64,000 bases of DNA from Bilabrum cf. latius (GCA_965178125.1 OZ237763.1:682001-746000); one strand, 5' to 3'; shown: positions 3,001 through 26,876, counted from the first letter of the stretch. A program made the numbers and translations. The notes: a model not told the origin generated them from the letters alone.

Positions 3001-6000
3001 TTCTGCGTCCTCAGTCGCGAAGGTGAACGGAGACCCTCCGAAACTCGTGGTGAAGTCCGCGCTGGGAAGGATGCTCAGCCGCCCGTCGGGCCTGGCCTCC
3101 GTGGGCACGTTGCCGATGCCCCGCACGAAGCTGAACTTCCCAGCCCCAGTGCCGGCTTGCTCGAGGATGGCAGCGGTGGACGCACGAAAGCCCAGCTGCG
3201 GGGGGTCCACGAGGTCACGCGCTTTGAAGGTCAGCGGTCCGATGCTCTGTGCCGAGTCCTTGCAGGCCTGTGTCCTCTCCTTGCCCGCGGCGCAGGGCCC
3301 TGACCTCACCACCACGCGGAAATCAAACTGCCTTGAGTCGGCGGGCAGTTCCTCGTAGTTGATGGTCCGCTCCGCCTCCTCCACCCCGGACTCGGGGAAG
3401 CTCACCTCCAGCGAGAAACTGGTGGGGCTGCCCCCTGTGCGGATGCGGCCTGAGACGGGCTTCACCACCACGGTGCCTTCGCTGGACACGTCCGTCACGG
3501 CGGCAGCATCCTCGCCGTCGGTGATGAACGCACCAGCGGGCGGTGCCACGGCGGCAGGCTTGATGTTCAGCAGAGCCTTGCCCGCGTACATACCCCCGGC
3601 AAGGGAAGGACTGCTGTCGCCGTCGAAGACCACGGCCAGCTCAAGGTCCCTGTCACCACCGCCAGTCACGGTGCCCTGCACGCCCGAGAATCGACCCACC
3701 GGCAGCGGAGTGTCATCGCTCACGCGGAACTGCGTGCTGGATCCGAACACCGTGTCGATCTCGGCCAGCGGCTCGCAGGAGATTGCCTCCCCGCGGCCCT
3801 CGCCGCTGTCGCCTTCGGCCTCGAAGCCCTCGGAGCACACGCACGCGGTGCTGTCGGCGTTGGGCTCCGCGTTCTCGTCCGCGTCGGTGCACTGGAAGCA
3901 GGGCACTACCTGGCCGAAATCAGCGTGGTTGATGCTGCCAGACTCGCACTGGTTGCAGGTCGCCGAGCCCTCAAGCGGCTGGAAGCGGCCAGGGGAGCAG
4001 GACTGGCACGCCAGGGCGCCCACGAGCGGCTGGAAGCGGCCGGGAGCGCACGAGGAGCACGTCTTAGTGTCGTCCTCGCCCGCACCGGGCTTGCAGGTGA
4101 AGGTCACGGTGTTGGACAGCGAGACCGTGCCGATGGAGCACAGCACGCCCTGCGTGTCCAGGTTGAATCCGCCCGACGGCGACTCGTCCAGCTCGCCGTC
4201 GCAGGCCACGAGGCGCACGGGTACTTCATCGTCGGTGCTGTACTCGAGCCCGGCGGCGCTGAGGGTCACTGCTCCAGAGGAGCGATCCACGGAGAGGCTG
4301 CTGATGGCGGCGGAGCTGGGCACCTCCACATTGGGGAAGGTCACGTCCTTGCCATGGAGGTAGTAGACCACGCTGCTGCCACTCTCGGGGTCCTCGAAGG
4401 CGGGAGCGGCCGAGCTGGCGATGGTCACCGCGTCGTTGATAGGGGCCTGCACCTGCACAGTGCTGCCAGCGGAGCTGCCTGCAGCCGCGGCCGGTGCCTC
4501 GTTCACGTCGGTGATCTTGAACACGCCCGGGAATTCGAGTGTCTACGACTCGCCGTTGCTGAACTGCACGGTCACCTTGAGGGTGTACTGCCAACCGCCC
4601 TCGGGGAAGCTCTCGAAGTCAAGTGCCGAGGCCTTGGCGCGAATGGCGTCGCCCACATCGTTCACGAACAGGATCCCGCTGTCGTCCCCCTCCTCACCGG
4701 GGACGATCTCCAGGTTGAAGGTGGTCACCGTCACGCCGCACGCCTCGGTGTTGGCAGAGACATCTGCGATCGGCACGCTGGCATCAGGGGAGGCGTCTCC
4801 CGCGGCCGTGAGCTCAGAGCGAGCGGGGATGCTGATGTCGCCACCAGGAGAGGGCTGCACCGCGAGCTGGCCTCCAGCATTCGAGTACGTGATATCGATG
4901 ACCGCAGTGATCACAATAGAGTCGTCACCGCTGGTTGACTCCGCCACCTGGCTGCTGCCGGCACCGTTGCTAGAGCACGTGGCCCCCTCATCGAAAGCAG
5001 GCAAGAGGGGCCCCTGGGCAGCGATGCCAGAGCCAGCCACGGAATCGTCGCCCTGTGCGCTCTCGCTCACAGCGGGCATCTGCATGGGGTCGCCCCAGCA
5101 CTTCATGCCGCGCGCCACGTCGTCGGTCGAGTACAGGGCGCATGCCTGCGTGTTGGTGACCGCCAGCTCGTGTACGACGAGGTCGCCCGAGCCATCAGCG
5201 GTGCCGAGGAACTCGAGGAAGTCGGTCGAGCTGACTGTTGCGGGGACGGGACCGTTCGAGTCGGTCTTGCCTCCCATGGAGGCGAGGGCGGTGGCACCCA
5301 TAGGCAAGGGCTCCTGCACGCAGACTATGCCACCGCGGAATGCAACATCGGGTGCACTAGCAGAGATGGGGGCAGCCGCGAAGCAGGCAGCCTGAGGACC
5401 GGAAGATACGTCGAAGCTATCGAAGTTCTACAGCTGGAAAGCTTGGCCATCCACTGAGGCCCCGAAGGCCTCAATAGAATAGCCGCCCGTGGTGCCATCG
5501 AAGTCGGCTGCGTTCCAGCCCCACCCGCGGCCCAGCCACAGGTACGGGGGGCCGTCCTAGTCGGGATCCATGTTGGCTAGTTGGAAGCGGTTTGCGTAGG
5601 TGCGAGTTCTCAGCGGTTTGGGCAGGAGTCCAGCCGCCTTAAGGTTGTCCCAGTCGCCCCAGCACCTGAGTAGCACGGTGGTGGTGTCCCCGGTGATGTC
5701 ACTGTTGCGCACGCGTGCACACACAGCCGAGTGCAGTGAGACGAGCTCCAGCACCTCGTCTCGCTCGTTCATGACGACTTCCACGGGCTTGGCCTCAGCA
5801 ACCTATAGCACGGGGGAGCTGTACAGATCTCCAGCAACGTTCTCAACGCTAGTGCGTCGCACTATGGGCTGCACGATGCCGGGGGCGGGATCCAGGGCTG
5901 CCTCGTTCTCGTCCTCGCCAAGCCCCTTGCCCACGGCTGCCGACGTGACGCCCCAGCACACCACGCGAGTATCGTCGTAAGTATTGGTTCCCACTGTCTC

Positions 6001-7293
6001 GGGCTCGTAGAGCACACAGTAGTGCAGTGCACCCGCCACGATCTGTGTGGCCTTGCGCGCCGCCAGCTCCGAATCGACGTACGTGCCGATGGGCACCGGG
6101 CCTAGGCCAAGGCTCGGCATACGGGTCTAGGCTGCTGTCTCGCGGCTGTGGTAGACGCCGCTAGGTGAGAACCCCAAAGAAATGGGCCCGAAGCACTGCA
6201 CGTTGCCGAACAGCACGTCGTTCTGGTCGTCGACGATGGAAGGCACCTGGCCCTCCATCAGGAAGCACGAGCCGGTTGTGGTGGAGGCGCCCTCGCCGCT
6301 GAATGTCCGGTGCGCGGGGCGGGTGGTTGGGGTCGAGGGCACCTCTCCGTCGAAGAGGTCCTCGCACTCGTCGTTGAAGCGAGCCTTCTGCCAACCGGCG
6401 CTCGGGCGCATGGCGTTGCCAGCGACCTCTTCGTCATCATGGGAACCCAGCACAACGCTGACGTAGCTCAGCAGGAGATTGCGATCATTATCGTCCTGCT
6501 GCGCAATGTAAGCGTCAGTGTACGGCTTCGGTTCCGCGTAGCAGGTCGGCAAGGATATTTGCCGGGCGGATGTGAACAAGCCTAGCTAGTCCGGACGCTG
6601 CACGCTAATCAGCGAAACCGGTTGCTCCGGAGTACCGAGGTCCTGAACGGACAAATCTGATCCAGTATACGCGCAGTACAGATCGCCTTGAGCCACACCG
6701 CAGATGTGGGCGTGACCGGTCGTGATGCCCTCGAGATCCGTGTCGGAGCCCTTGGTGACAGCAGGCGAATCCTGGATGATCGAGAACGAGCCCTCTGCGT
6801 CATAAGCAGCTGTCACATCGGACTGCGCGCCGCTGGAGAGACCGCAACGAGCTTTCAAATCGTTGGACTGCTTGTGACACCCAAAGCAGTACGTCTGGGC
6901 TTCAGAGCTGGATGATTCTGCGAAACAAGAAGCCAAACGGTAAGGAGGCCTTAGCACCGTGAACGGAGGTACAGTCATAACACAGCCCGCTACAGCAAAC
7001 ATGGTAAGTTATTTTCGAATATCAGAGAAAGTCTTGAGGGCAAGAAGCGGGATAACGAACCGTGGCGCCAAACCACATCACTACGCGTCAAGATGCAACA
7101 ACCCAATACCACTCGATTTTGCACGAGTTCCCGAAAATTATGGCAACTCACGGTCAGTGCGCTGTGCTTGAGAGCAAATAAGTCCATTGGTGGACCTGTA
7201 AAGTCCCTGCCAGCCGCAGGAAGCGCATGATCCGGTCGCCGACACACTCGCAGTACCGAAGGCTGCCAGAACAGCCAACGTGTAAGTGATCAT
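1..7293 (-). CDS. Large secreted/surface protein with cadherin-like repeats and Cys-rich (GCC2/GCC3, ephrin-receptor-like) repeats; 3' end runs off the window
   Basis: ORFs 6586-7002, 6127-6579, 5803-6120, 5557-5784, 4543-5319 and 2113-4524 share one frame, separated only by TAG (6586, 6127, 5803, 5557, 5428, 4543, 2113). The frame stays open to base 1. Cadherin-type motifs: ITDVNEAP, LDYETQ, VNVNDVFENRPPF, DATDRD, VLDVVEAP. CxxCxPGRFQ repeats are present. Predicted first exon from ATG 7293 encodes a signal peptide (MITYTLAVLAAFGTASVSA). Confidence 0.85.
6918..7151 (-). other. Probable spliceosomal intron (may hide a micro-exon)
   Basis: GTGAGT donor at 7151; GCTAA...TTCTTGTTTCGCAG acceptor at 6918. 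The phase-1 join restores the downstream frame. Confidence 0.55.
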
Positions 7294-7546
7294 GGTGAAC
7301 TCTACTGAGCTGAATGGGTAGTAGTGAGCTACTCTAGCAATTTGACTGGCGATTCGACGAATGTCGAAGCAGCGGCAGTCACAGTACTAGGAAGAATGGT
7401 TTGAGTTGGTCCGCTGGAAATAAAATAAACTCTCCTTTCATAGAAATTGCAGTTGGTCGCAAGCAGCGGTCGCAACCACACAGGCAATAATCGGTCCCTC
7501 AACAAGCAGCTCTCACTCGACAATGACTTCCAATATATGTTTCAGA

Positions 7547-10500
7547 TCAGTGCCCACGCCGCCTTCCGCGTTTTCTGGAGGTGCGCACTGCCCCGGCAGC
7601 ATCGTTTCTCTCCTGCGCAATCCGCGAGCGGTCCGTGTGATAGAACTCGTCTAGCACCCCGACCGTGTGCCTAGAATTCAGCCGGCCCATGCCGTGCAAC
7701 CCGATACCCTCCTGCTGCTCGCCAAGCTCTCTTCCACTGAGCAGCCTGCCGGTCCGTACGAGGTCCTCCAGCTTGCGAAGGCGGCTGCCACGCCTCCAGT
7801 GCCTCGCTGTTTCACTCTCGGCGTCGCCACCGCCCGCCTAGCCCAGCCCTGTCCCCACACTATCTCGCGCGTACCCCTTCAGAGCAAGCGAGAAATCCCG
7901 CCTCTTCGCACTTGCACTACGTTGCACCCGTGCCTTCGCCATCGGGTTGTTGGCGGCGGCGGGCCTCTGCAAATCGGACTCCCTCTCCTTCGAGTTCCCG
8001 TCCCGCTCCAGCCTCCTCTGCGCCTCGAACTCCCTCTCCCTCTCCCTCCGGATAGCCTCGGGACTCTCCGGATCTTCCTGCAGGATCGTCCACCAGAAGA
8101 GTAAGAACAGCACGCCCAGGCACGTTATGCTGCCGATCCCGACCACGTACGTGAGCCCGAGTGCCGCCTGCTGCAGCACGTCACCGTACCTCGCCTGCAT
8201 CGTGGGATGCTGCTGAATTGCAGATACAGTGTTGAGACCCACGGCAAGAGCAGACAGCAGTAGAGTGCCTGCTTTGCCCACCCTCTTCCATTCGAACTCT
8301 TCGAGAAAGGGAGCTGCCCACTCGATCGCAACCATGGCAGACAGCAGCACAAAAATGGAGCAAATCCCAGCAAACAGGGCTCGAGTCGGCTCGTTGGGCA
8401 CCCACAGCACCTCAAGACCGGCTAAGCAAAGCAGCACCATCCAGTCAACCACACGCACCCACGCCCTGGAGGCACGGTAATCCCCATCCACAAAGTAGGC
8501 CAGCCGGTGAGTTTGCCGCAGGATCAGCGACCGGTCTCTCACTGTCTCCAGCATCACTCGCGCCATGGCAGGCGACACGTTGACCCCGAACGACTCAATC
8601 TCAGCCTGGAGTGCGGGCAGAGGGCCCGAAGTGGGTGACTCCGCCAGTGCCCTCTGCACGTGGCCGGGTGCACCTGAGCCTCTTTGCGCACGCGGTGCAT
8701 GGGCGGGCGGCTGCCGCGGGTACTCCTTGCTGTCTGACTCGCTCCGTCCCCTGGACTCCTATTGGGCTTCACCCCGCAGCATGCCCTGTTGCGGCCGCTT
8801 CCCCAGCCTCGGGGCTCCCGACCGATACGTGCTCTCCTTCTTCTTTGTCAGCGCCCCGCTTGATCGCATTGGGTTGCTGAAGTGAACTGCGCCTCCGTCG
8901 CTGTCCTGGCTGGAATGGTTCAGCTGCGGCCCGCTCGTGTCCATCCCTTCGGATGCCGCCTCTGTGTCATCTTGATCCGCGAGATAGTCTCGCTTGAGCT
9001 GCCGCACCGAGAGAGATGCAGCCTCGTGGGAGAACGGGCCAGATGTAGGGGTGGCAGCAGCCGAGGACACGCGTTGGCCTGGAGCTGCAGACGCCCTCGC
9101 GCAGCAACCCGTGCTACTTTGCTGTCGCATTTGCTGTTTCCGCTCCTCAGCGATAGCCATGTTGAGCAGGGTCTTGGTCGCGAGCAGCCGTGGAGCGGAT
9201 GGGGAGGCCTCCACTGTGCGGTCCACTTCGGGCACGATCCACAGCAGCAGCACGAGAGGGTACCCCAGGAGAATGAGTAGACCGGCTATGCAGGCCAGGG
9301 CCAGGGCGAGCTAGTGAGGAGCGTCCCGGAAACAGACCACAGTGGGGTCTTTCACTAACAGCAGCACATCCGTGTCTGACGGGTCGTGCCCCAGGCTGGC
9401 GAGGATGCCAGCTTCTAGCGACCCTAGCCCAGCACCAGCACCAGAGGCATTAGGCTCGGTAACGTTGGCGGCTTGATATTCGCTGCCAGTTGAGATGTTC
9501 GCAGCGCTGCCAAGTGCCTCAGGGGGCAGCTGTACGGCATCGACTGCGGACTCGGCCACCTGTGCAAGCGCCATGGGGGTCCTGCAGTCGACTACCTGCA
9601 CGATGGTGGTGCACACGATGGCGTACAGCAGTGACAGTGCAGTCAACAGTCCTCTCGAGGTGATGCCAAGAGATGTGGTTGCGTCGCCTCTGGTTACTCT
9701 GCCCGCGTGAAGAATGCCTTGCTGGCCTGGCTTGAAGCCTGGCGAGCTGCGGCCAGGGCCGCGCGACAGTGGTGATGAATCCGTGCCCACTCGTTTGCTG
9801 GAGCCCATCACCTCTCGCATAGCTGCCGCGGGGGAGGCGGGGTGGGACTGTAGTCCCATACCCACCGGAACCAGGCCTGTCCGCACTGATAGCCCTTGAC
9901 CCTTGCCAGCCGGCCCGTCTTTGCCGGTCTGATGGTGCGCGTGCGACATGGGATTTCGCACGAAGCAGGAAGCGGATGTGTCGCTGGGTGAGGACATGGG
10001 TTCTCGAGAAATCGACTCGGCTGGCAGTCCCGAGGACCACAATGCAGTATACCCTGCGATCCCGATGAAGATAGCCACCCCGAGCACCACCATTTCCTGG
10101 GCCAGCTTGATACTGCCAACGCAGTCAGGGTGCACCAGCGCGGAGCTCTCAAACCGAAACACGTCCAGCATTCGCACCACCGTGTAGTACCACTGGGGCA
10201 GGCCTGGCTGCACCGCCCTGCCTGCCTGCGCCACGGTCTACAGAAGCACGCCAGCGAACAGCGTGAACTGTGCCGTCCTCTTGGCCGCCAGCCCGAGCGG
10301 GATCTCTCGCGCGTATGCCACCGTGCCAACGCCAAGCATGAGCACGATGCAAGCGCCGAGCACACCTCCGCCGTACAGCAGCACTGGCTAGATCAGCAGC
10401 CAGGCAGATGGCGAGGAGGGACACAGCTGGCAGCTGCCATCTGCCTCCGGAAACCTCCCGTCCTCGCACCTCGAGCATCCAGTAGACCCCTGCCTGTATC

Positions 10501-13500
10501 CATACCCACACATAGATGCCTCGCTCTCACTGCTCCAGCCCAGGCATCGCTCCACGGCAGGTGGCTCGCACTGCACTACGAGTCCAGAGTCGGCTGACTC
10601 GGTCCAGTACCCTGGCATTGGCAGTGCCTTGTATCCACCGGGGCACACGGCGCCACCGGGACACGGCCTGCACTCCCCACCGGCACCAAACGCGCACACC
10701 AACCCGGCCTTGACTGCGTCTTCATTCGAACAGAGAGCCCCTGGCTCAGGATAGCCCACGCACTACTCCACGTACTCGATTCCGCCCCTCAGTACGAGAG
10801 CAGTAAGGCCCCTTGGACTCCCAACGACGCCCTCACCGGTGAATGCTACCTACAGGGAGGTGCCAGATGCGCCATGATCTAGCGCGAAATCCTCGGTGCC
10901 TGGCTCAAATGGAGCGAGAAGCACGCACCCACCGAGCTCAAACGATTCATTGAGCCCGCCTGTGGAAAGTTTCCACTCTCGGTCTCTGTCCTGCATCGCA
11001 CATAAATCGTGTAGCAGCGACATGGTCCGGCTGTCCGCGAGCACCCGAGTGACATTGGCCCCAGATGGTTGCACTTGCAGCTCCCTTGCGGCTCGACTAG
11101 GTGCTGGAGATTCCTGATTAGATTCGGTATCGAATCCCGGTTCAAATCGATGACGTATGGATGCCCAAGGGGAGGAAACAGGGGCATGGCCGGCATCACT
11201 TCGCACAGGGGGGCTCGCAATTAGTACAGACCGTGCCGGACAGGCGTCTGCTGCGGCTCCTCCACCGCAAGCAGCACCTGCATCCGGCACGCGCACCCTC
11301 GCTCCGTCCATACTGTCCACTACTTGCACCACCTGTGCTTGCACACCCCCTACAAACACGAGCGAGTCATACGAGAAACACGGCACTCTGGTAACACCGT
11401 CAGTAGACATGGGACATGCCAGCGTGACCTCGGCAGACCCACTAACCACAAGGCTGGGGCCAAGCCAGGCGGCCCTAGTAGAGTCATCAGTACTCGCAGC
11501 CCGGAGGGCCTTTTGAATAGAATTATCTATCGATTCAGGGCCGCTTTCAGACAACTAACCATTCGAATTGTCCTGCAATCGTCGGCTGCTTTCATCTGAA
11601 TCAGGCAGAGCATCCGTTGACCCATCACCGGAGCCAGAGCTTCCCCACGCGGACAGATAGCGAGAGCTCCTTCCAAGAATGGCAGCGGCAGAACCGGGTG
11701 CAGGAGTGTCTTCCGTTGCACCGTCTGTTTCTGCGCCCCACACAGCGTCAGGAAGACGTGTGAGGATGTCGCTAGCCTGCGGCCAGCGCACCGGCCTTGC
11801 TGTCACTGGCACGCTCATTGCGAGAGGCTGCTCGTACACAGCGCCGCTCGGTGGACCTGGGAGTGCAGCCAGATCAGACGGTAGCAGCACGCGCTGATCT
11901 AATTCTGCCAATAACGAGGCAGCAGCTGCCTTCTAGGTCCCCACCATCACGCAAGTGAGCCATCCCCGGCCATGCGCGGGTTCCCTGTCTCTCGGCCATC
12001 GATCGGGGTCCCCCTGGCCTCGATTTGCCTCCGTTTGCAGCGACACGGTCAATGTTGCTCCCTGCTGCTGGTCGTTATCACCGTCATTGGCGCTGGTCCA
12101 TACCTCTGCATCTCTTGTCAGTGCCTGTACTGACGGCTTCGCCTCATGCGTGACTAGCCCAGTGGGATCAACCGAATGCCCCGCGCAAGCCAGTACAACC
12201 GCTTCATCGGCGGCAGGGGGTACTGGCACGCGGATGTGAAACGCCGGGGCAGAGCCAGCTGCAACTGACAGTGCGCTGCTGGACGTTGCGTGAATAGCCA
12301 CTCCAGCATCCGAGTCCCGCTTGCCAGGGTACAAATCAAGGAGAGATGAGGCAGCGAACATAGTGCGGTGCGAGCCCGCTTCGTTCGCCCTACTGGCTAG
12401 CTCAGCCTCAGACAGCCCGGTCACCACATCGACAGCATCAATCGGGGCACCCAAAGACGTGGACTCAGTCGGTGAGGTCAGCACCGCTAGCGATGTGCAA
12501 GCAGCCACTGATAGATCCACAGGCTCGCCTATCACAAGGGGTGAAGACGCGCGCCCGTCCAGCGCGGCTGTGAAAGCCCCTGGCAATGCCAACCGCATGG
12601 CACCTTGGCCTGGCACCTCCCCGGAGAACGGAAGCACCGTCAGCTGCGTTGACAATTCAACGCACACGGCGGATGACCCCACAGGTGCTTGCTGGTCCAG
12701 TGCCTGAAGCGCAGGCATTCCCACGAGTGGCCTTGCCTCCAGGGCCCGTTGCTCTCCCAGAATCGCACGTGCGTCCATCAGGGCCGTCCAGTCTGACGGA
12801 GGCACGGGAGGTACAAAGGCAGTTATGTTGAGCCCACGCTGTACAGATGCAGCTGCGGTCCCTGCAGCAGCTGCTGGTTGCTCTAGAATGTGGGCAGTGC
12901 TGCGCAGGTCGCTCACCCTGCCAGAGCCACCGCTCACCCGCACTCCAAGCTACGCACTCGCAAGCCGCGCAGGCAACCCACTCACTGTCCAGTCATCTTG
13001 TGACCCAGTCAGCACATGCATCAAATCTACCCGCAGGGTATTCAGCACACCTATGGGGTTGGATAGATCCGCTGTCTGGAATACCAGAGACACGTTCACA
13101 ACTGGTGGGAGCCACCCGATCGATGCAGCGGCCCCGTCTCGGTCATTTGAGCCTGCAGTAGCACCCAGGGTGGCAGCAGCAGCTGCCGGAGCGCCGCTTG
13201 AGTCACGATGGTGATCTTGCTGCAGAACTGCGCCCGAGCAGATCCTAGTGGTGATTGCCATTCTCGGCCCGCACGCGGCTGTGGATCCGCTGATGGGAGG
13301 CAGGGGGTGAACGCCCTTGCATTCATGCGACGCACCCAATCGTGGGACCTCGGCCAGCGAACCTTCAGCTGCCTGTGCAGCTCTCGCGGCCCCCATGGGC
13401 CAGGTGCACTGGGGACCCTGGTCCAGGTATACGGTGATCGATGCGGGTTTGCCATACAGTCTCACATCTGGGCTTGCCACGGCTATTCCACGCAGCTAGT

Positions 13501-16500
13501 CAAGCCTATCTTGGAGTGTGAAGTTCTTCACCAGCAACACTGGACTAACTTCCACCTGCACAGCCCTGCCGTGCATGGCCTCACGAATGTCATCGAATGG
13601 ACCGACAGGCAGACGGCCCTGGAGTCGCCGCACTGCTTCCACCCTCAGGTCATGCAGGGGATCCGAGGGGTGAGAGGGCGAGCGCAGCCACACCTGCATG
13701 AGATCCGCGGATCCGGTAGCCACCGTCTCATCTGCGTCTGCAAAGACGGGCTCCGCGCGCATGCCACCAACTGAAGCTCCCGATACGCCTGTGCTTGTTG
13801 CTATGGGCAGGGTCGGGCTGCTCGCAAATGGGAAGCGAAGAGCTCGCGGCGATGAGTCGTTCCCAGGCTGGATCCTTCGAATCGCACTTGAGGGCCGGCT
13901 GGCCTCTTCCAAGGCGAGGTGGGCCTCGTGCATGCCAACGTCCGTCCTAGTTGGGATCAGGTCGGAAGCCAGGACTGAGATTGGGAAGATTGCCTGCGAT
14001 TGAGCAGTTTGCTGCAGCTGCCAGTACTAGTTGGAGGCTCTAAGTAGCGCATCTGTGGGCGCGGGAAGCCACACACCAAGCTGGGTCCGGTTCAAGTCCA
14101 CTGCCCCGCGAATCTCTGGTGGCTGCTAGCTGTACACGGCAGGGTCATTCGTGGCTCTTATCGTGCTGCCTCTTGGTTCGAGATCACGCAGTTCAATCGA
14201 CATTGGTACCTGGACAGCAACTCTGGTGTCGCGTCGAGACAGCGTACCGCCTCGGGCAATGACTGCATCCAAGGAATCGAACCACGCAGTTTCGGGCTCA
14301 AGACTGGAAAGCAGATCCCGCTGCCCGCTCACTGCGAGTTCGAGCGCGAGCGTCTGCACCTGTGCGAGACCGGCGGTGCAATTGATGCTTGCATTTGCGC
14401 CCTGCTGCAGTGCAACACCAATCACTTCGCACGCCGTTGCTCCTCCACGCAGACCCAGCAATACGTCCAGCTGAACGGAGGGTGATGCAGGAGCCGGTGC
14501 ACCGTCAGACGAGGAGCCATATTGCTGTGCCAATCGTCCAAACAGTCTATAGAAGCTGCCAGTACCCAGGCCGATCGCAATGCTTACATTAAGCGCATGA
14601 CCAGGGCGCTCCCAGGCACCGGCCCATGGATCATGCTTCAGAGCAGCAAAGGCGAAATCAGCAGCCAAAGCAGTTCCAGATGAGGCATCGACAAAGCCTA
14701 CTATGTTCGATGAAACAACTACAACTGGCTGCTGGTGCTGCACCATGCTCTCGTTTCGCGACTCAATCTTCACTCGCAAGAAGTGGCTCGGCTACATGCC
14801 AGGCGAGGGCGGCTGGAATTCGAAGGGCTCGAACTGCCGGCTGAGGATGCCCGGAGCAGGTTGCGCAGTTGACCACGCCGAGGACTCTATCCCTAGTGCG
14901 CCTATAGGAAGCAAAGCCTCAGACACACCACGGGCACGCAGCAAGCCCCGCAGGCATGCAGCATCCCCCACAGCCTGCACGGCCATAGCAGTGGTCACGT
15001 CCCTCAGAGCGGCGAAGGGGCAGGTTCCGACGGCAAGAAGCAGATCTGCACCGCTGTGAGCCGTGACAACGGCACCATTTATGGCGATGCGGACTAGCTC
15101 TACACCTGCAGCCAATGCATCATCGATCACTGTCTCCAGCACCGTGCCTGGAGGTGGCACAACAGCTGTCACGGTTTCATTCAATTGGGATCCTCGGCTC
15201 AGAATGGCCTCGATGCTCTAACGGGAGGCAGCAAGCGCTGCAGCCAAAGCAGGCACAGAAGTCGAATTGGAGGAAACCGGACTTGCAGCCGAAAGGTCGA
15301 ATGCTGGAACAGGATGCACTGACAGCAGCTGCATGGATTCCCTGTCTGTCGAGTCGAGGTATACCCAAGACTAAGTAGCCCGGCGGGGAGTCTAGGCCTG
15401 GAAATGAACTATTTCCAGAGGTACAGATACAGTCAGTGTGCGACTCGCAGAGCGATTTGTCAGCTCTGTGTAGCCTCCGACGGGAGGGAACACGGCCTGA
15501 GATAGGCGTCTTGGGTTGGAACCGCCTGCACTCCAGAGCGACGCAGTGAAATTCACCGACGCTACGCTGTCTCTAGGCATGAGGCGGGACTTTGCGACAA
15601 GTTTGTCTTGTACCACGCCTTGGAACACACCCGCTGGCATAGACACGATGACACGGTCGTGGCTGCCAGATACAATCTCGCATGCGACGCCTTCAATGAT
15701 CCCGACGAGGTCACGGCCGTCGAGCCAGTGGGAGAGCCCTTGTCCTTGCACCTCAAAATCGACACGGGCGTCCAATGGCGGTACCTAGTACAGCAAGTAC
15801 CCTGCGACCTGCACAATGTACGATGAGGTAGCGGATGGCGTCGCAGAGGCCCACAGCGGCACCGTCAAGGCCAGAGCCTCCAACTACTCTCTGCTTTGCG
15901 TGACGTTCATGCGAAGGGTTGCCATGTCACCCGAGGCTGTCACCTGCCGCCACGCGTGGACAGTTCGGTTGTGGTAAACCGGTTCAAACTCTGTGCTACT
16001 GAGCGGGTCTACCTCCACCTGGATGCGCAGATCGGGACCTCTAGTCAAGAGGGGCTAAAAGCTTGAGGCATCAAGGAGGTCCCAGTCCCGGCCGCTTGCC
16101 ACGTAGCTGCACGGCACAGACGTGAACTCGATACTGAGATCTGTCGTGAACGTTGCATTACCACGCACCGAAGCACTCATGGCTGCCTCGGCCACATCCT
16201 GATCATCATTCAGACACTCGAACAGCTGACTAACTTGGAACGCAACGGTAAGGTTGCGGAGGATATGAGTTCGTTCTAGTCGTTGCGGTGGAAGCACCGT
16301 GCCGGCAATACCACGTGAGTTTGGGCACTGCAGCCGAACTCGGAGGTCATGATGCTGCAAATGGCTAGAAATACCTTCTCCCGACATAAACAGCAGCAGC
16401 CTGTCCGTGTCAACCTCGAAGTCAATCCGTACTGGGTCTGCTACAGGCAACGATACGCTCAATCCCGTGGACAACCGGCGATCTGCGATCACTTTGTAGA

Positions 16501-19500
16501 TTCTATCGATGAAGCGGCCACTCAGAGCGTATGGCAACCACAAATCCTCTGTGGTATTGAATGCCAGCTCGGGCTGAAGCGAGCGCATGCCAACTGACAG
16601 CGGCCGAGAAAACCCCAGGCACTGCTGGCCAAGCGCATCCACCCTCTGAATTTCTTGCTCCGAGATACTGTAGTCGCCGCTCAATATCTCTACCCCAGAG
16701 TGAAGCTCCAATTGCAGGAGATCAGCACTGACCGCCAGCCTGCCGCCCATTCTTCCTCTAGCCTAGATTTCGTTCAAGTCAAAGATATGGCCCGTCTAAT
16801 TCAGCAGCTGCCCGTCAACGCCCCCGATGCTGACGTTCTCTGCCACTAGACTGCCGATTCCGTCGGGTGTCAATGGAAGCATCCGACTCGTATTCAATTG
16901 TACGGAGGCAACGAGAGTGGTCCGGGACTGATTCCCCAGGAACAATCGGTCCGGACAGTGATCAGGCCCCCACGCAACACACCCAAACGGAAGAGTCTCA
17001 TTGGTAGGATACAGTGCTGCAGACGGCAAAGCTGACCACCATACAGCTTGAAATGCCCCGGAAAAGTTGCCTGCAGGCAGCTCTCCACCCCCGGGGAAGA
17101 CCAGCCTGGACAGCGTCATGGTGGCATCGCGTCCGTGCAACTCGCTAGGGGGAGATATCGCTACCTGGACAAACATGGCAGACGGAACGGAGCTGCCAAT
17201 GCTAAAACCTTCGCCCGCTAGAGGTTCGAGTGGGTCAAAGCTGGACTCATTGACGAAGCTGTCACGCAGAAATACCAAGGCATCACTTGCGTTCACCCAA
17301 TGCGACGAGTAGGACATCGCTTCCAGCACATCACCATCCGCAAGCTGCATCAAGAAGGTTGCGTATGGCGGCGGCAGAGGACCCGACTGAATGGTGTTGT
17401 CGTGTGCGATGTCATCGGGGCCAAAGGCTGCGTCAACGGGGACCTGCACCAGCGCCACTGGTGGCAGCTGGTCACCCGAGGCGGGCACGATAAAGCGTGG
17501 TCCCAGCAGTGCTGGGCGGTCTGCGGTAGCGTTCTTCAACTCGATGCTTTGAGGCTCTGCAGAGGCGTAGTAGCTTCTTACCACTGAGCACGCGGCGTCG
17601 TCCTTCTAGTTAGCCCATGTCTCCAGGTCTAGCAGACTCGCTGCGGGATACCCAAGCAGTGTCTCCGGGTAATCGCTAAACTCATCGAATCGGTACGACG
17701 CATTGGACGCGCGAGTGGTGTTAAGCTGCAGCTACAGAGGCATCGGGAGGGCATCTGGCCAGAAGACACACAGCGCAGCCTGAAGAGACGCGTTCGTGCC
17801 GAGCACTGGAAAATGCGCCACAGCCTCGTAGCTGAAGTGGGGGTGTACTGTGCCTGCGATGAGATCAGCTTCGGATGGGACCGCGAAATAATTGCCAGCT
17901 GCCTCCCTCTCAGCTAAAGACATGGCACGGATGATGTTTGGCACGTTCACAACCCGGCTTCCCGGGCCGATCCCCTGCACTGATGAGACCCAGCTCCTCT
18001 GCATAGGTGAGTCCCCCAGCTGCACGAAGGCCATGGCACCATCTCGAAGCATGGACACCACCGGCAGCTCGCCGCGGATGGCTATCCTAAGCTGCTGCGC
18101 GATCGCTTGCACACTACTCAAGCCGGCAAGATCCTAGCTGCTAATGGGAGCGCCAGACCTGTCAGTGACCAGCATGACCCGCGGCAAGAGAAGCTCTCCC
18201 CGCCCTAGGCAGTTGGTGCACTACACAGAATCGGTTCCAGTGGCCTGCGTCAGGTAGTGGAACGAGGCAGCGGGGATTCCGAACCCAATCAAGCTTCTGT
18301 CGCTGCTGGAATTCAGAAACAGTGCAACCCGCCTTCCCTGCACCTTGGACAGCCCGAACGCAGTGCCATCAGCACGGAGATATCCCCCGTGATGTAGCTG
18401 CGAGTTCAGCAAATCAGTGGCCGGCATTTCTGGAAGATCCTTGTACAGGTGCAGTGGATGCGCGCCATGCGTGGACTGAATACCCCACAGGCCACCATCT
18501 CTGTACGCAGCAAACTGCAACCGAGTCCATTCGCGCTGTTCACCGGCAGCTTCGATGCCAGGAAGCAAAGCCTGCACCTGCGACTTGTTGCCGTAGATGG
18601 ACCAGTCGACGGCCAACATCTTGCTGCGGCTCGCTATTTCCAGGAGCACTCTCTGCTGGGTCCCATTGGGGAACTGCATCGGCAGCAAGCAGGAGGCAGT
18701 CCCTCTTTGGCCACCCCTGGGGCACAGGATTGGCCACCTGTCGTACCCATCGACAGGGTCCACATTTCCCTCTGGGATGGCGTGCAGCTCCGGAGTGCGC
18801 TGCAGACAGAACGTGGCAGCCGAGACCCCCTTGAATCCTGAATTTGACTCCTAGTCATTCCCCCCAATCGCCACGACCCTACCCCCACCAATGTGCGTCA
18901 GACCGAAATTGGCTCTCTCCCCGGCGCCCACATCTGTGCCTCCGTCAGGTGCCAGCTGCTGCTCCCAGTGATGGCCATGATCCCAGGACCGCCAGCAATC
19001 TGCAAAAAACGGCTAGTTGGCTATCCCTGAGCCGCTGAGGATCCCGGCGCCACCACCTGTAGTATCCTTGCCCCCGCAAATCACAATACTACCATCAGGC
19101 AGGGCTGCCAGCTGTGCCCCCCTCCTCGGGGGCCAGTAGGAGCGATGATGTGCCCTGGCAGTCAGTCCAGTCTCGATCCATGTATTGCCAGCATCGAGCG
19201 AGGCAGCGCTGGCTGACGACAACGCCCTGCCGTCGCAACCCACGATGACCACGGCGCCAGATGAAGCAGTTATCGCTCTATTGTCGCTGCAAGTTCCAGG
19301 GGCATTGGACACCAAGTCCCATGATTGCCCAAGGTCGTCTGATGCATGCACCTAACTGCGCGGCGAGAAAGAGGGGGGGTCTACCCCACCAACGCACAGC
19401 AATCGGCTACCATCACTTCGGTTGACAGCAGCAGCCCCGAAGTACTGGAGGGTAGGCATGGAAGCTGTCAACGTTGACGACATGCCCTGCGCTAAGCTGC

Positions 19501-22500
19501 CAAGGTTCGTGCGGAACCCCCCGGTGGAATGCCCGAGGATTGCAAACAGCTGCTAGCCGGCGGGCCCATCCTCATCGATTGGTGCATTCCGTGGGACAGG
19601 TGGCAGGGTCACTAGGCTGCGCTGAGTAGCAGATGTCTCATCACCTTTTCTATACGGATAAAACGATTGACCATAGTCGTCGCTTCTAAGCATGCTATTG
19701 CCATAGGTCATGGGGGCACCACTGTCTCCATCCGTTGCAATTATCGTCCCGTTGGACAGCCCAATCGCATCGATAAATCGTGCGGTATGGCCTAATTGAC
19801 TGTAGTCGACCAACTCTTGCCAGTCTCCCCCATCACAGTTGCTATCAGCAGTCATGGACTCGGCTGTTGCACTCGCGATTCCTGCCCCTCTCGGCCTGCT
19901 GAATCTGGACACTGCAGTCCTCAACATAAATCGGGGAAAAGAGGAATTGCTGCCGTTACGTGAGGGAAACACGCGACTGAGATCCTCCCGGTACCGAGCG
20001 CCAAGGACTGACACTGGACGCATCTCTGCGACTGGCATATCATGCCCTCCTGGTGCAGACTGAAGCCCGGCCAGCTGCTCCAAATCATGGATGCTGCGGC
20101 GCCCCCACGAAAGCTATGCGAAACCGTCCTAGTTTGCCGAGAGTGAGCTTGCGTTCCCATTGCCAACCATATTCCCCAGCTCGAAGTACGTTCCATCGAC
20201 AGCATGTAGCTGCAGTCCTTCCGGCCATCGAGCAATCGGAGGCAGACTGTATACGGCTGCAAATCCCAGCGTTTCTGAAGCTACTGAAGCGCCAGGGGCT
20301 CCAACCAGCAGCAGAGGAGTTGAATCGATCGAACAATCGGTGAATGCGCAAGGCACAATCGCAACGGATCGGCCATACCGCAAGCCAGCAGCGAGATATT
20401 CCCTGGGTGGGGAAATGAGCCGAACGCTTCCAGGCACAACGAGGGCATGGTCGATGGTGGCAAGTGGTGATCCCTTCAATCTTCGTGAGAGAGACAAAGA
20501 TGAATTCTTGGTGCCTGACATTGCCGCGCTGAAACCCAGCGTGAACATGAGCACTGCGCCCTGGTTCTGCCTGTCAAACGTGGTGGGAAACTCGGCCTTG
20601 TACTCGGAATGGACGCGAGTCCCATCGAAGGGGGTCTAATAGGCCTAGCAGCCGACAGCGACCTCGAGAAGGCCGTCGCCGTCCAGATCTGCTGCAGACA
20701 CGAAGACACCAAAGCTGCGGCCATCGTGTGGAAGCACGCCAATGGGAAACAAACCACCCTTACCACCCATCTGAGGCCCAATTCTTCGGACTGCACTGAC
20801 CATCTGGTTCGCTTCGTAGGTGATCAAATACAGCGCCCCTCCATAAGCATCATTGGTAGCTGACAGCCACGGGACCCTATGTTTCTCTACGGTCGTTCCC
20901 AGGAGAACCTCGGGCTTGCCGTCTCCATCCAGGTCACCTGCACTCTCCAAAGCCATTCCCCAGTGGTCTGCTCCCGCAAATTCATCCACGAGACTATCAT
21001 CGGTGAATGAGGCGAGCTCGGTTTCCGTGGCGAGTCCAGAATGCTGTATCTGGCCGCCTGCTCTGAATGTGGCAGAAATGATACCCCCATCAGAGTTGCC
21101 GTTCAGGTCGAAAATCCCGACCACGACTCCCTCACTACAACCATCGCCGTCAAAATCTACCGCGGCAGCCGAATGACCAGCGTCTGCACTCGTGCTATAT
21201 GAAATCCCAGTAGAAAGCCCTAGTGAATTTGTGGCATGGCTCTTAGTTCCGCCCGCTCGGGTGTAGTAGTGCAAGGTTCCGTTGATAGGGGTACCGACTG
21301 TCGGCAAAGTTGATCCAGCATCCATGGTCGGGCTCTACGACACAGCGAATCGCCAGAACGCCCCTGCCTTCGAGTCCTGCAAGAGAGCACCCACGGTAAA
21401 CCAGACCGAATCTACAGGCAGCGTTGAAGCGCCATCCGAATTCAACCTGCACCCCCGAGTCACGGCCGCGGACGTGCTTATCTGGTCGAGATCTCTCACG
21501 TGCTCACCCTCTTGATCCAGCCCAAGTTGGGCCACCGCCATGCGCCGCACGCGGTAAGCGGCGTATCCCAGCCCGCCTCCATAGCCGTACACATCCTGCC
21601 GAAGCCTGGGCCCGGTACTCCGCCACTCATCGATGGTCTCACCCTCCCTGCGATTGCGCCAATCCAGAAACAGCACGTAAACGACGCCGTCCGCATAGGC
21701 ATCTGTTGTATCGAGGTCACGTACCTCCTTCCTCTGCGTTACGATCGCGTCCAGCTGTCCATCCCCATCGATATCAAACCACCTGGAAATTGATCCAAAG
21801 CCAGAAAAAGCCTAGTCAGTGTGTTCCGACTCGCCCGTGGCCAGCGCGGCAAAGTCCTTGCCGCGCTCGGCTCCCGCCCCCCGCCCAGCCATTCCCATCA
21901 GCCTAGCAGGCTCGACCTAAGTGGGACCCACCCACAGACAGCCCCTGCACTCGGCTGTCGCCCAGTCGAGCCCGGCTGTCCCCGCACCAGTGCTACCATT
22001 AGTAGTAGCAAACGATACTCGGATGGAGGCAAGGCCGGCCGGGAGCGGAGGAAGCTCGGCTGCAAGTGGTGCCTACGCTGGTCCGCGCGCGCTGCACGGG
22101 CCTGACGTGGGGCACTGCAGGCTGTCGTATGCTGCCTCCAGTACTGAGGGCAGCACGTGCGCTTCCCACCGTAGCATGGGACTCACACCAATAGATTCAT
22201 TCCTGGATTCCCCTACTGGCAGCTGTCTGGCAGGGGCGATCGGCCGCGCTTCTTGCGTCGACTGGTTGTACTGGCTAAAGGCCCAGACCGAGGACACTGC
22301 TCGAACCCATGGCTGCAGGGCCACCCCAGGTAGCAGGCTTGGTCCACTACCATGTGCGTGCCAGTCCGCGCTAAAGCATGCCCCCGCCAATTCCTGCGTG
22401 CTGCTTGCATCCAGCCTGCCTCCCTCCTGCAGCATGGCCTGCCCCGAGTGGGCGGCGAGGAGGGCCCGGGGCACCACGCACACCTCAACCACGGGTGCCA

Positions 22501-24691
22501 CCGAGATGCGGGGGCGATCCGAGAGCATGGGCGCCTGCAGGTTCATGGCGATCTGCTCAATGACCCACCTGGAGGCATGCAGCTGTGGCTCTTGGCTGGC
22601 ACAGCACAGTGGAGGCCTGTCTGGCCTGACCCTGGACCAGGCAGAGCCCATGGGCAGCACCCTCTGGTGGTGGGCGCCAAGCCCCTACTTTGGGCTGCTG
22701 CTTTCGACCAGCACCGTTGACTCCAGGTCTCGCCGGAGCACTGCTAGGGTTGTCAAGGATGCAAGTGCCATGCGGGGGGCACGCGTTGGCCCCCCAGTGC
22801 TGCTTTCTGCATTGGCAACAGGGTGGCCGGATCTAGGATAGCCTGCCAACGTGGCATTTTGCGCGCCCGCAGCCGGCAGCTCGGATCCAAAGTACACGGC
22901 CCTCTACCCAGACCACGTCACTGGATCCGATGCGTTCAGGAGGTCCATGGACATGAGATAGCTGCTGTTCCACCCATTCAGTCGCTGGAAGTGAATAGCC
23001 TCTTCCTCGACCGCTTCTGGCTGATGCTGTTGGTCATCCACAATCTCCAGCATGCCCACGGCGATGAAACCGGTGCTAGTTGCGGTCGGATCGCATGGCC
23101 TAGCCACTGCTATGCGAGTGCCTCCGGGGTACATGGACAGGGCAGGCAGTATTTGCATGTCGGTACCAAAGTGGCACTGCGTTGGCGGCGCTTCCACGCC
23201 ACCAACCCAAGCAGCCTCTCGAATGAATGCCCCAGGCTGGCTCTGCCCGTCTACCATGCCTCCAGCAGACAAAAAAATGACGAGAAGCCGGTTCGTACGA
23301 GAGCTAGCGACGATATCCGGGGTGCCGTCCCCATCCACGTCAGTCGAGACAAGGGCCCGGCCGATCCCCGCGTTGCTCGGGATGTCCGCACCACCGATTG
23401 TCCCGCCCATGGTGTCCGCAGAGATGTAAGAGAGAGCAAGTACTTGTGGCTCGGTACCTTTCTTGATCCAGAACAGGTATACTGCGCCCTTGGCTGAGCC
23501 GCAGCCAGGACATCCATAGGCCACCACAGACGACTCCGTGATGGACCCGCTTGGCATACCATCGGGAGGGGCCTGAGCCGTACCGCCGAAGGACTGGACC
23601 GGAGAATCTACGGAGGCCCAGCCCCGCGTCACGAATGCCACTTGTCCTGCGAGACTACTCTCCGTGACGGCTGGATGCAGCTCCCCGCTGAGCAGCAGGC
23701 TCGCCTCCGCCACCTGCCCGAACCGCCTGTGCACCACATACACGAGGCTTTGCTTGCGCACGGGCGAGATGCCCGGCACAGTGAACATGGTGACCACCAT
23801 CGCATCCGGGCTCCCGTCGCCCGTCACGTCCCCGATGGCACCCGCCGAGTGCGCCACGCCCGCCAGCCCCATTGCGGGGTCATCCGTCCTCCTGATCTCG
23901 TGCACTCCCGTGGTGAAACCCATGTACGGAGTGTCCCCGCCGGTGCGGCCGGGGACACTGGCCTGCGCCATGAGCGGTCCCTGGCCCAGTTCCAGTAGAG
24001 CTGCGTTCCCTGCAGTGGCGCTGATGATGAGCAGGTCGTCCACGGTGCCTGGGTTGGAGCTGCCTCCCGCCGAGCCCGTGTCTCCCAGCGCAACCACGAT
24101 GGAGTGATCTCCAGGCGTAATCGAGCCAGCGAAATTCGTGTTCAGGTGGTCCGACAGACCCACTGGGTTGGCCACCAGGCCGCTGATAGACGCAGGGGCG
24201 GGGTCGAACACCAGTTGGTTCTGGGGGGAGAGCAACGGGGTGGTGTCGCATTGCCCAAGGAATGCCTCTGCTCTCATCCACGGGCGAGTATCGCGGTCCT
24301 CAACCATCTTCGTGACATTCTCGCGCTAAGCAGGCGGCAGCACCAGCTCGGGGTGCAGGCGCCTGGGTGCCTGCACTCTTGCGACCGAAAGGCACAGCCC
24401 GTTTGCGATTCCAGATCGTGGCTCGTACTCCGCGACAAGAACAAAATCGTCCCGCCCAAAGGAATCGTCAAGCGAACTGTATCCCCCTATTCCTTCCCAA
24501 GGCGACCTGATTATGTCAAACGCGGCCGGCCACTGCCTATAGTCATTCGAGCCTTCAATCTCTCTACCGTCCAACTAGTACAGCAGCGTGAAATTCACTG
24601 ATGCACGGCAGACGTGCAAAGCCATGATTGAAAATAACAAAAGGGCGCAAGGCAGTATAGCTGCTTTGTGATCGAACGAAGCACGCAGCAT
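7547..24691 (-). CDS. Giant (~5,714 aa) intronless receptor-like membrane protein: signal peptide, FG-GAP/integrin-alpha-type Ca-binding repeats, BNR/Asp-box and Kelch-like motifs, Cys-rich region, C-terminal multi-pass TM domain
   Basis: All 25 listed minus-strand ORF pieces from 7838 to 24574 are in one frame and each ends in TAG. I read the gaps between them and found more TAGs (about 42 in total) but no TAA or TGA between ATG 24691 and TGA 7547. Motifs: GDVTGDG, DVDGDG, DIDGDG, DFDGDG, GDLDGDG, ADLDGDG; SDDYGQSF, SDDLGQSW, SWDHGHHW; CRPCPGGAVCPGG...PGYW; hydrophobic helices at about 8100-10390. Confidence 0.9.
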
Positions 24692-24965
24692 GGTTCACTG
24701 ATTGGTCTAGGTGCCCGACGAATAGCAGCGCCTGGCGTCACAGAGGTCGCAATGCTGATCAGACGAGGTTCATTGCACTCCAAAGCAACGATCGCAAACC
24801 ATCAATAATTCCCGCTTGCTGCTAGTGGAATGCCACATCTTTCTGCCGGAGTTCGTTCGTCGCGGTTTGTTCCGGTGTAGCAGCTGTGACCTGGACTGGT
24901 GAGCGACAACATCGGGCTCGTCTTGTGCAGTCTTTGCGTGCTCTGTCGGAATTATGTGCTCATCA
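24692..24965. promoter_or_regulatory. Short divergent intergenic region, candidate bidirectional promoter
   Basis: 274 bp between head-to-head start codons (24691 minus, 24966 plus). No specific motif identified. Confidence 0.35.
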
Positions 24966-26876
24966 ATGCATCCATCCCTACTGACCTAGATTGATGAGCT
25001 GGATCGGCGCTCTCGAGGAGTGTATAAGCGTGCAAGCGTGGATCTGGTGCGCCTTGCTACACTGCTTGGTGCTGCGTGTTCCAGGAGTGATGACAGGAAA
25101 TTGGGCGGCAAGCCGAATCTAGGAGACCGAATATCAGCGATTCGATAGTACATGAAAAAGCTCAGGTTTGGAAGCGAGTTCAGATCCCTTCATGTCGCTT
25201 CCAAACGGCTCCTCACTAGCCTCGACAACCACGACACTTCCAGTACAGCCACCATATGTTGCTCAGAGCACGAAATTGGAGCCACAGAAAGGCACTGGTT
25301 GACTTCATCTATATATGAATACTTGCGCGCATCTGGATATGCTGACTTGTCTGCTATAGCGCTGGAGCGACAGATTGGCAGTACAGCAAGCAGCAGGCCA
25401 CCAGCTGCTGCCATTGGCTCGCGTGGTGCTCATCCATCGGCAGCAACCGACCTAGCATCCATCCATTCTGCAGCTCAAGCAATTGGTAAGGGTCAACCAG
25501 CCTAGGCTCTGCTTTGGATGGAGGCGCACTCGGCCCGGGTGCCTCCAGAGGATCGCTCAATCGTGGAGGTGCAACTGCACGCGATCCGATATATCGCGCT
25601 GCTACGAGGGCAAACCGCGGACGTTCAGGCAAAACCATTTGCACCTTTACAACGCGGTGGGCAGCGACCCGTTGATGAAACTCTCGTGGACTTAGTTCGG
25701 CGCGCGCTGAACGACCGACTTTGGTCGTCGGAGGCTGTCGGACCTCGGCCGCAGCTGGGGCTGAGCGCCGACTCCTTCAGGCACAGTGGAAGTGCAGGCG
25801 GTAATGGAAGCACAGTGGGCTCTGACACACCCGCAGGCGTGCACCACTCGAACGGCTCCGAAGCGATGGAGCCACTGTCCCTGCCCCCCCCTCCCCCCAC
25901 CACTCCCTCTACTCCTGCTGCTCCACATCCGCGCGCTCCTGCCTCAGCCTCAAACGGTCACGGCCCCGGCCTTGGGGCACCTTTCAGCAGCAATGGAGCC
26001 AATGGGGGGTCCCAAGCAGCATCAGGCGGGGCGAAAGTGTCCAACGGTGCGAGGAACGGAACCTCAGGAGCCGCTAGCGCAGTGCCTGCCGCAGCACAAG
26101 CAGCGCACAAGAACGGGTCAATTGCTTCCAGGAGCGGTTCAGGCGGACCAGCACACAACCCGCTGAGCGGATCTGCCTCATCGGATGAACCGGCGTCAAA
26201 GGACCGATCACCGACTCCTCCCGGCCTGGGCACACGCATCGGCCTGGCATCACGCTACTACCGTGCCTACCTGGCGCGCCATGCACGGGGCCCCCAATCG
26301 AAGCTTGTGCGGCGACTGGCGGGCGCGGGGGCCTACGCCGACCGGCTCGAGTCGTCGCCTTACGCTGACTTGTGCTCAGACAGGTTCCTGCGAAGTGCGG
26401 GTGAAGCCTTCCTGGCGAGTGCCAGCCGAGCCCTTGGCTTGTCGCTGGACTCCGAGCTCAGCAGGGTGCTGAGGGCGGGGGCGGCCGTGGAAGAGGCGCT
26501 TCGGCGCGGGGCGGAGGGCCTCGGATGTTCCCCTGGCGCTTCCGTGGAGGGTCTGGTCGCAGGCAAGTCGTCTGAGAGGCCGTGCAGGACGCTCGGGCTG
26601 GAGACTGCTCCCTCACTGCGGGAGGGTGTGGCGGACGGGAGCGCGGAGGTACAGGCGGAGCTTCCCGCCGAGATGGTGACGGTGTCCACGGTCGTGTGTC
26701 CCATCGGGAGGCACGTGTGCTCGAGGGAGGACCCTCCCATGGTGCTCGTGTGCGGGCACGTGGTGTCCAAGGAGACGATGGAGCAGCTGGCGCAGGAGAG
26801 GGCGAGGGGCAGGATTAAGTGCCCCGTGTGCATGCAGGTGGGGCGGACCTAGGATGTGATCGAAATGATGTTTTGA
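24966..26876 (+). CDS. RMND5: RMND5/GID2-like RING subunit of the CTLH/GID E3 ligase (~636 aa)
   Basis: One frame from ATG 24966 to TGA 26874 with TAG at 24987, 25146, 25503 and 26850. LisH-like IYEYLRASGY segment. C-terminal degenerate RING: VVCPIGR...DPPMVLVCGHVVSK...IKCPVC. Confidence 0.8.

Follow-up and report, generated by a model that had tools for sequence, protein, structure and literature searches.

Reassignment of UAG alone is rare outside ciliates. One nuclear code of this kind, in which UAG encodes glutamine and UAA and UGA remain stops, is described for the fornicate Iotanema spirale in the abstract of PMC5304391, which names two cases of UAG-only reassignment. Alveolate cysteine repeat modular proteins (CRMPs), as outlined in PMC9670195, combine an EGF-receptor-like Cys-rich domain with C-terminal transmembrane (TM) helices, nine in Toxoplasma and Plasmodium and five in Tetrahymena; they have variable host-binding ectodomains and a role in rhoptry or mucocyst discharge, and are proposed contact sensors. 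Here we describe a giant gene in a stretch of 64,000 nucleotides from Bilabrum cf. latius (GCA_965178125.1 OZ237763.1:682001-746000), the whole of which we call the window and whose first letter is position 1. The gene occupies 7547..24691 on the minus strand, and its open reading frame (ORF) is crossed by 42 in-frame TAGs that we read as glutamine. With a probability of roughly 0.8, we take it to be one intron-less gene, written in a code with TAG as glutamine and TAA and TGA as stops, for a protein with the receptor architecture set out below.

Frame 0 of the minus strand of 7547-24691 gives 5,714 codons plus TGA, with 42 TAGs, no TAA and a single TGA, the final codon (7547-7549). The plus-strand reading of the same interval (frame 1) was rejected, being closed by 10 TAA, 34 TAG and 75 TGA. 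The start ATG lies at 24689-24691; an in-frame TGA stands two codons upstream and makes an earlier start impossible, and the frame thus begins at the earliest start available to it and closes at the first TAA or TGA that it meets. A preliminary description of this locus, which named no strand, had claimed a single frame of 17,145 nt with about 42 TAGs and no TAA or TGA, and on the minus strand this is what we observe, with the terminal TGA as the only exception. The 25 fragments that it counted in one frame, all ending in TAG, are about right as well: the 42 TAGs divide the frame into 43 segments, of which 27 are at least 60 aa long, and 22 ATG-started ORFs are at least 60 aa long. Standard-code gene calling accordingly splits the gene into about 43 pieces. 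It had further been argued that random decay would also produce TAA and TGA, and hence that the codon is recoded; the position-specific composition of the frame predicts 31.6 TAA and 32.8 TGA, about 64 in total, and internally there is none of either (P ~1e-28), as the argument requires. Given the mix of stops in the two off-frames (TAG share 113/366), the probability that all 42 stops would be TAG is 3.7e-22. The GC content of third codon positions exceeds that of second positions in all 19 blocks of 300 codons along the frame, which indicates that one frame is coding from end to end. A chance origin of the open frame is excluded.

As judged by comparison with relatives, TAG is glutamine, in agreement with the earlier proposal of recoding. 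TAG codon 4818 (10238..10240, minus strand) falls on a near-invariant glutamine of the second membrane helix, and in an alignment made from the best 150 of the 881 relatives described below, its column holds Q in 129 of 133 sequences, making it the most conserved residue within the membrane part; the homolog from Cafeteria also carries Q at this place. In a neighbouring retroelement ORF, TAG codon 577 occupies the glutamine position of reverse transcriptase (RT) motif B, which is Q in 4/4 homologs. Among truncated library fragments, that is, standard-code gene calls that end inside the membrane module, four out of five stop just before a Q/TAG position, where 4.9% is the background.

Relatives are encoded at ten metagenome loci, with 71-77% identity in the best tblastn segment, and all ten loci contain in-frame TAGs. 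Their homologous frames hold 89 TAG and 0 TAA in 9,242 codons. Opposite the relatives' TAGs, the codon of the giant gene is CAG, CAA or TAG in 32/75 cases; opposite the TAGs of the giant gene, the relatives' codon is one of these three in 31/56, and no other codon rises above 6 in either set of pairings. Within residues 4630-4890 the agreement is complete, at 20/20 for the relatives' TAGs and 26/26 for those of the giant gene. In a non-redundant count TAG pairs with Q in 22/75 cases (Q background 3.7%), and this is as often as genuine glutamines face Q in the same alignments (21%). A molecular mechanism of recoding and expression of the giant gene are presumed.

The same usage extends over the window. 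In its 11 tallied ORFs we count 99 TAG and 0 TAA in 17,059 codons, against about 23 TAA expected if TAA:CAA usage mirrored TAG:CAG. Of the ten ORFs that end inside the window, nine stop at TGA and one at TAA, so that none needs a TAG stop; these stop counts and the absence of TAA are partly circular because the ORFs were delimited by TAA and TGA. Apart from the giant gene, in-frame TAGs are present in eight of the ten tallied ORFs, the WW and permease ORFs being without them. TAA is a stop or an unused codon, and is never found in the coding frames examined. On this sequence evidence the code is of the NCBI table 15 type, with TAG as sense and TAA and TGA as stops, a variant that is itself already known. 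As in table 15 and in Iotanema spirale, only UAG is reassigned in the window, and to glutamine. In contrast to Iotanema spirale, the present genome is GC-rich (~60%), and the named relatives of its receptor family are found in the stramenopile Cafeteria and in one partial protein filed under Symbiodinium. Within the limited library that we searched, we met no report that stramenopiles or bicosoecids have reassigned UAG in a nuclear code.

It could be supposed that TAG is instead ambiguous, acting as sense or stop by context and giving several shorter products, or that it is read through at a low level without a dedicated tRNA; ambiguous stop/sense codes are described for some ciliates. However, partial readthrough of 42 TAGs would make the full-length product vanishingly rare, and the membrane module, which needs the N-terminal signal peptide, is conserved downstream of 36 of the 42. 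The stop usage given above, with its partial circularity, also speaks against ambiguity, as does the position following TAG in the giant gene, where none of the four bases is strongly preferred (G 14, C 12, A 9, T 7). We regard an ambiguous TAG as very improbable.

Contigs of other public runs confirm the letters of the giant gene. Those of run X5, which bears another study code, agree without a single mismatch over 16,820 of the ORF's 17,145 bases and include 40 of the 42 TAGs, and one contig of run X6 spans 15 of them. Two stretches are left uncovered by matching contigs, 8478-8506 and 21892-22187, and carry no weight either way. We stress that the runs may come from the same organism, so that the contigs confirm the letters and not the biology, and that all the runs compared are contigs, which are uninformative on expression. 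No contig joint falls within 10460-21891. We read the joints elsewhere as paralogs and not introns, since each either falls within or abuts the multi-copy C-terminal module or stems from a diverged contig. Diverged contigs pile up at 8050-8550 and 10120-10800, where the summed depth is ~100-340 compared with ~15 over the rest of the gene, and this pile-up on the membrane module points to many copies of the module per genome or community.

The giant gene does not owe its sequence to faulty assembly. By the standard code, which breaks the frame 42 times, it might be taken for a decaying pseudogene or for an assembly artefact. Against decay, TAG is the sole interrupter (P ~1e-22 to 1e-28), the GC pattern by codon position is undisturbed from one end of the frame to the other, TAGs stand on conserved glutamine positions, and the same pattern of TAGs recurs in 10/10 related loci and in other genes of the window; against an artefact, identical contigs are found in other runs. 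Both explanations can for practical purposes be discarded.

The predicted protein begins with a signal-peptide-like segment (residues 1-30; 24602..24691, minus strand, as are all parts listed below), whose hydrophobic core at residues 10-28 was recognized by a Kyte-Doolittle scan only. Together with the terminal TGA, this signal-like hydrophobic helix matches the preliminary description, in which the frame starts with a signal peptide and ends at TGA. The first FG-GAP region, residues 270-470 (23282..23884), has a Pfam FG-GAP match over the stretch 444-463 (E 3.2e-7) and a DVDGDG motif at 451. The second, residues 960-1360 (20612..21814), matches FG-GAP in three stretches (PF01839, E 1.3e-14; 54.1 bits, cut-off 22.1) and FG-GAP_3 (E 7.9e-13), and carries DxDGDG motifs at 973, 1179, 1253 and 1335, giving five calcium-loop motifs over both regions; it also aligns with the FG-GAP region of the Cafeteria homolog. 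The integrin-alpha-like propellers claimed at the outset are thus supported as FG-GAP repeats.

The Asp-box or Kelch-like propeller of the same description holds as a set of motifs only. Four motifs of the form SxDxGxxW (at 1670, 1784, 1831 and 1902, by regular expression) are present within residues 1660-1915 (18947..19714), but the Pfam matches of this region fall below their cut-offs (BNR, 13.9 bits against 27; Kelch_6, 20.6 bits against 25.3), and a single-sequence AlphaFold2 (AF2) model of residues 1590-2070 is unusable, with a predicted local distance difference test score (pLDDT) of 30. By sequence, its matches in the PDB are sialidases, at no better than E 0.28.

The stalk, residues 2100-4629 (10805..18394), comprises about 2,500 non-repetitive residues in which no Pfam family was found, and a search for internal repeats in the giant protein as a whole found none. 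Of the 55 NxS/T sequons of the protein, 50 precede residue 4800, many of them in the stalk. From residue 3275 onwards the stalk aligns with the longer of the related loci (L001, L002, L003 and L010) at 41-47% identity. An indexed search with residues 1050-2150 for relatives of near-equal length returned none.

A Cys-rich module, residues 4636-4760 (10412..10786), adjoins the membrane; it is TNFR/ephrin-receptor-like and has 14 conserved cysteines. Its profile finds the Cys-rich region of EphA2/EphA4 in the PDB, with weak scores (E 0.012-0.02). The Pfam entry DUF7631 matches below its cut-off in 25/33 family members, and a literature search for DUF7631, DUF7630, PF24634 and PF24633 found no papers.

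For the module of residues 4630-5560 an AF2 model was built with 32 relatives; it has a predicted template modelling score of 0.67, 513 of its 931 residues reach a pLDDT of at least 70, and it shows nine long helices. TM1-TM3 lie in residues 4763-4888 (10028..10405; AF2 helices 134-165, 170-194 and 235-259 in module numbering), with the conserved Q4818 and Q4822 in TM2. A first disordered loop, residues 4889-5003 (9683..10027; pLDDT <50), is followed by TM4, a putatively extracellular loop and TM5 (residues 5004-5162; 9206..9682), the loop having three sequons and the conserved Cys 5036 and 5120. A second loop, long and mostly disordered in the model (residues 5163-5410; 8462..9205), leads to the TM6-TM9 cluster (residues 5411-5538; 8078..8461), with conserved P5461, W5468 and K5469, and to an Arg/Glu-rich tail (residues 5539-5714; 7550..8077; R 19%, E 10%). 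The model suggests a topology with the N-terminus outside and the C-terminus inside: with nine passes and an outside ectodomain, the sequons at 5065-5081 would be outside the cell, as would the conserved cysteines in the loops TM2-3 and TM4-5, and both disordered loops and the tail would be cytosolic. The long stalk, the Cys-rich segment and the seven to nine TM helices that had been anticipated are all present, and the AlphaFold calculation that had been proposed as a check, run here on the membrane module, gives a confident helical core and puts the number of helices at nine.

An exhaustive HMMER search with the same residues 4630-5560 returned 881 matches at E <= 1e-3, 98 of them at E <= 1e-30. 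Both clusters, namely the Cys-rich part with TM1-3 and the last four helices, occur in 68 of the best 150 matches, 470-1,170 aa apart. The invariants of the family are, in module numbering, C37-C128, C228, C407, C491, Q189, P832 and W839; the giant protein has the membrane-proximal Cys pattern, the Q-x-x-x-Q of TM2 and the four-helix cluster with P...WK. We found no Pfam model for the combined Cys-rich and 9-TM module. Pfam annotation of 15 long members gave Lectin_C, Kelch, RCC1 and combined TIG + EPTP ectodomains, most having no Pfam match at all, and a profile search among longer proteins gave five matches and added members with LRR and cadherin domains (P0169 and P0171 bear cadherin). The named sources among the relatives are Cafeteria and, for one partial protein, Symbiodinium; all others are metagenomic. 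By sequence comparison, the Cys-rich and 9-TM module is what a large, unnamed family of protist proteins has conserved as its core, the ectodomains differing between members, and the giant protein adds a very large new member to this unstudied family.

The closest named relative is FNF29_06786 of Cafeteria roenbergensis (KAA0148249.1, 4,535 aa; P0161 in our set), in which the parts follow the same N-to-C order as in the giant protein. FG-GAP is found near its N-terminus (E 3e-6), its Cys-rich and TM1-3 module shares 43% identity with that of the giant protein over 237 aa (E 3e-53), and the last TM cluster is also detected (E 0.004). It differs in being a standard-code gene call, 1,179 aa shorter and uncharacterised, and the rest of its ectodomain has no detectable similarity to that of the giant protein. 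The main text of a spatial-proteomics preprint on Cafeteria (10.64898/2026.10.13.758971) does not mention this homolog.

How such a protein might work is suggested by its architecture. The ectodomain, probably displayed at the cell surface, would bind an outside partner, be it prey, a surface or another cell; the nine-helix membrane module would pass the binding event inward, as a signal or as an ion flux; and members of the family would mount different adhesive ectodomains on a conserved membrane core. We hold this functional part of our reading, ectodomain binding coupled to signalling or ion flux by the membrane module, only tentatively, at somewhat less than even odds.

Within this scheme the module may be viewed more narrowly as an ion channel or mechanosensor, a distant relative of the fungal and protist transient receptor potential (TRP)-like Flc/Pkd2 proteins (PF06011), with the ectodomain serving as tether or gate. 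PF06011 proteins have about nine helices. They are likewise multi-pass eukaryotic membrane proteins, and their similarity to the last TM cluster is weak, collinear and recurring. In an Atlas feature search, residues 5312-5617 point to a TRP channel cluster with PF06011 on 33% of its members (score 0.88), and residues 4819-5126 to clusters that bear the TRP name (scores 0.82 and 0.78; for the one at 0.78, PF06011 is on 25% of members); PF06011 is found in 2/33 family members at E <= 1, and the match of P0043 (E 0.0013) aligns positions 228-412 of the 426-position profile collinearly with the last TM cluster. Polar residues kept inside helices, Q4818 and Q4822 in TM2, would also suit a channel. 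All of the PF06011 signals are, however, sub-threshold (18 bits against a cut-off of 28.5), Atlas scores below 0.9 are leads only, the giant protein itself has no PF06011 match at E <= 1, and the fold searches bring no channel fold to the fore. We know of no PF06011 protein with a giant FG-GAP ectodomain. A channel of this kind seems to us doubtful.

By analogy of plan the giant protein might instead be a relative of the CRMPs, a sensor that, on contact with a target, sets off regulated exocytosis, such as that of extrusomes or feeding organelles. A Cys-rich module, nine TM helices and a variable ectodomain are shared with the CRMPs as they are described. The likeness is one of published architecture. 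No CRMP name occurs among the source names of the matches, including the five matches to longer proteins, and the Kringle, MAR and GAIN features of CRMPs have no Pfam match in the giant protein. Compared in the same way, CRMP ectodomains are reported to carry Kringle, MAR and EGF domains, whereas the giant protein has FG-GAP repeats and Asp-boxes. We judge kinship with the CRMPs to be unlikely.

The label adhesion-receptor-like, under which the protein had first been placed, stands as a description of its architecture, but by Pfam tests the protein is not an integrin, an adhesion G-protein-coupled receptor (GPCR) or a polycystin. It shares with integrin alpha the FG-GAP repeats with DxDGDG calcium loops, and differs in having no Pfam match to the leg domains, nine membrane helices and not one, and about five times the length. 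With polycystin-1 and the adhesion GPCRs it has in common that the adhesive ectodomain, modular and very large, is carried by a multi-pass membrane part; it has nine predicted helices compared with their 7 or 11, and no fold match to them. Membership of the polycystin-1 family was rejected since REJ, GPS, PLAT and PKD_channel have no Pfam match, and that of the adhesion GPCRs since neither GAIN/GPS nor 7tm_2 has one (E <= 0.01 for the protein; E <= 1 for the module). For Trypanosoma cruzi DGF-1, an Atlas lead of 0.85 only, Pfam gives no backing, with no DGF-1_C (PF11040) in 33 family members at E <= 1.

Returning to the reading of one TAG-recoded gene for a contact receptor, we find several observations that weigh against it. 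Outside the conserved module many TAGs face residues other than glutamine (43/75 for the relatives' TAGs and 25/56 for those of the giant gene); such partners are uninformative, because they are expected at 41-63% identity, where true Q-Q pairing is only 21%. The related loci overlap and may be paralogs of one organism, so that the pairing counts are not independent. No tRNA gene was found in the 64-kb window; a tRNA-Gln(CUA) and an altered eRF1 would be expected, and transcription across the TAGs and a single product of 5,714 aa are presumed. TM2, an amphipathic helix, escaped the hydrophobicity scan, and its place among the membrane helices depends on the AF2 model and on where the sequons and cysteines lie. 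A further beta-propeller at the Asp-box region is possible but unconfirmed, and BLASTP of the ectodomain against 161 relatives gave no match at E <= 1e-4. As for function, no clear solved fold matches the module model: the best Foldseek hit has E 2.5, and the best VIA scores (Z 8.2 for generic helix bundles, about Z 7 for microbial rhodopsins) are within the noise range of the tool for helical models. A role as contact sensor or channel is putative.

If our reading of the code is true, another GC-rich UAG-only lineage, available as genomic DNA, would help to test the uncoupling of UAG and UAA reading. Since standard calling breaks the gene and leaves truncated fragments in protein libraries, annotation of this organism and its relatives needs table 15. 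The Cys-rich and 9-TM module marks a large and almost only metagenomic family of very large protist surface proteins, a candidate system for the recognition of prey, surfaces or cells in heterotrophic flagellates, and Cafeteria is culturable. We think it possible, with the odds somewhat against it, that this lineage lies outside the ciliates, perhaps as a stramenopile-like flagellate, that its UAG-only reassignment to glutamine is not yet in print, and that the giant gene is the first full-length representative to be recognised of a new nine-helix contact receptor or channel class with an unsolved fold and interchangeable ectodomains.

The window is eukaryotic, as its RMND5A-like CTLH/RING gene and its Armadillo, WW, cadherin-bearing and reverse-transcriptase ORFs show, and a scan of 6900-7700 for bacterial promoters and terminators was set aside as irrelevant for a eukaryote. 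The RMND5A-like gene, for a CTLH/RING E3 ligase subunit (24954-26876, plus strand; four TAGs; PDB 8pjn_b, E 2.7e-8), stands head-to-head with the giant gene at a distance of 262 bp; in its match to 8pjn_b no TAG falls in a conserved column. A cadherin-bearing ORF of 2,334 codons with seven TAGs (1-7002, minus strand) runs off the start of the window. Its Cadherin match (30.5 bits) is above the cut-off and an Ephrin_rec_like match just below; it may encode a second giant surface protein, the 9-TM family having cadherin members, but the C-terminal end is beyond the window. At 49758-51968 (plus strand) another FG-GAP protein is encoded, smaller at 736 aa, with two TAGs and a Ser/Pro-rich linker.

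The retroelement ORF (38670-43022, minus strand; RVT_1, 1,450 codons) holds 23 TAGs and is enriched in this codon, TAG making up ~32% of its glutamine codons against ~16% in the giant gene; a search of its RT ORF against the PDB by sequence gave no match. An amino-acid permease ORF (56386-57612, minus strand) matches profile positions 201-403 of 427 only. The missing N-terminal half must be encoded in a different exon or frame, and this suggests that the genome has some introns. An Ala/Glu-rich, coiled-coil-like ORF of 2,139 codons with no Pfam family (27493-33912, plus strand) lies where GC content reaches 71-72% and both GC skew and AT skew are strong, and it has a long antisense open frame. 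The Armadillo-repeat gene (34158-37892, plus strand) ends in TAA, the sole TAA stop seen in the window, and has tandem ten-residue repeats near its C-terminus.

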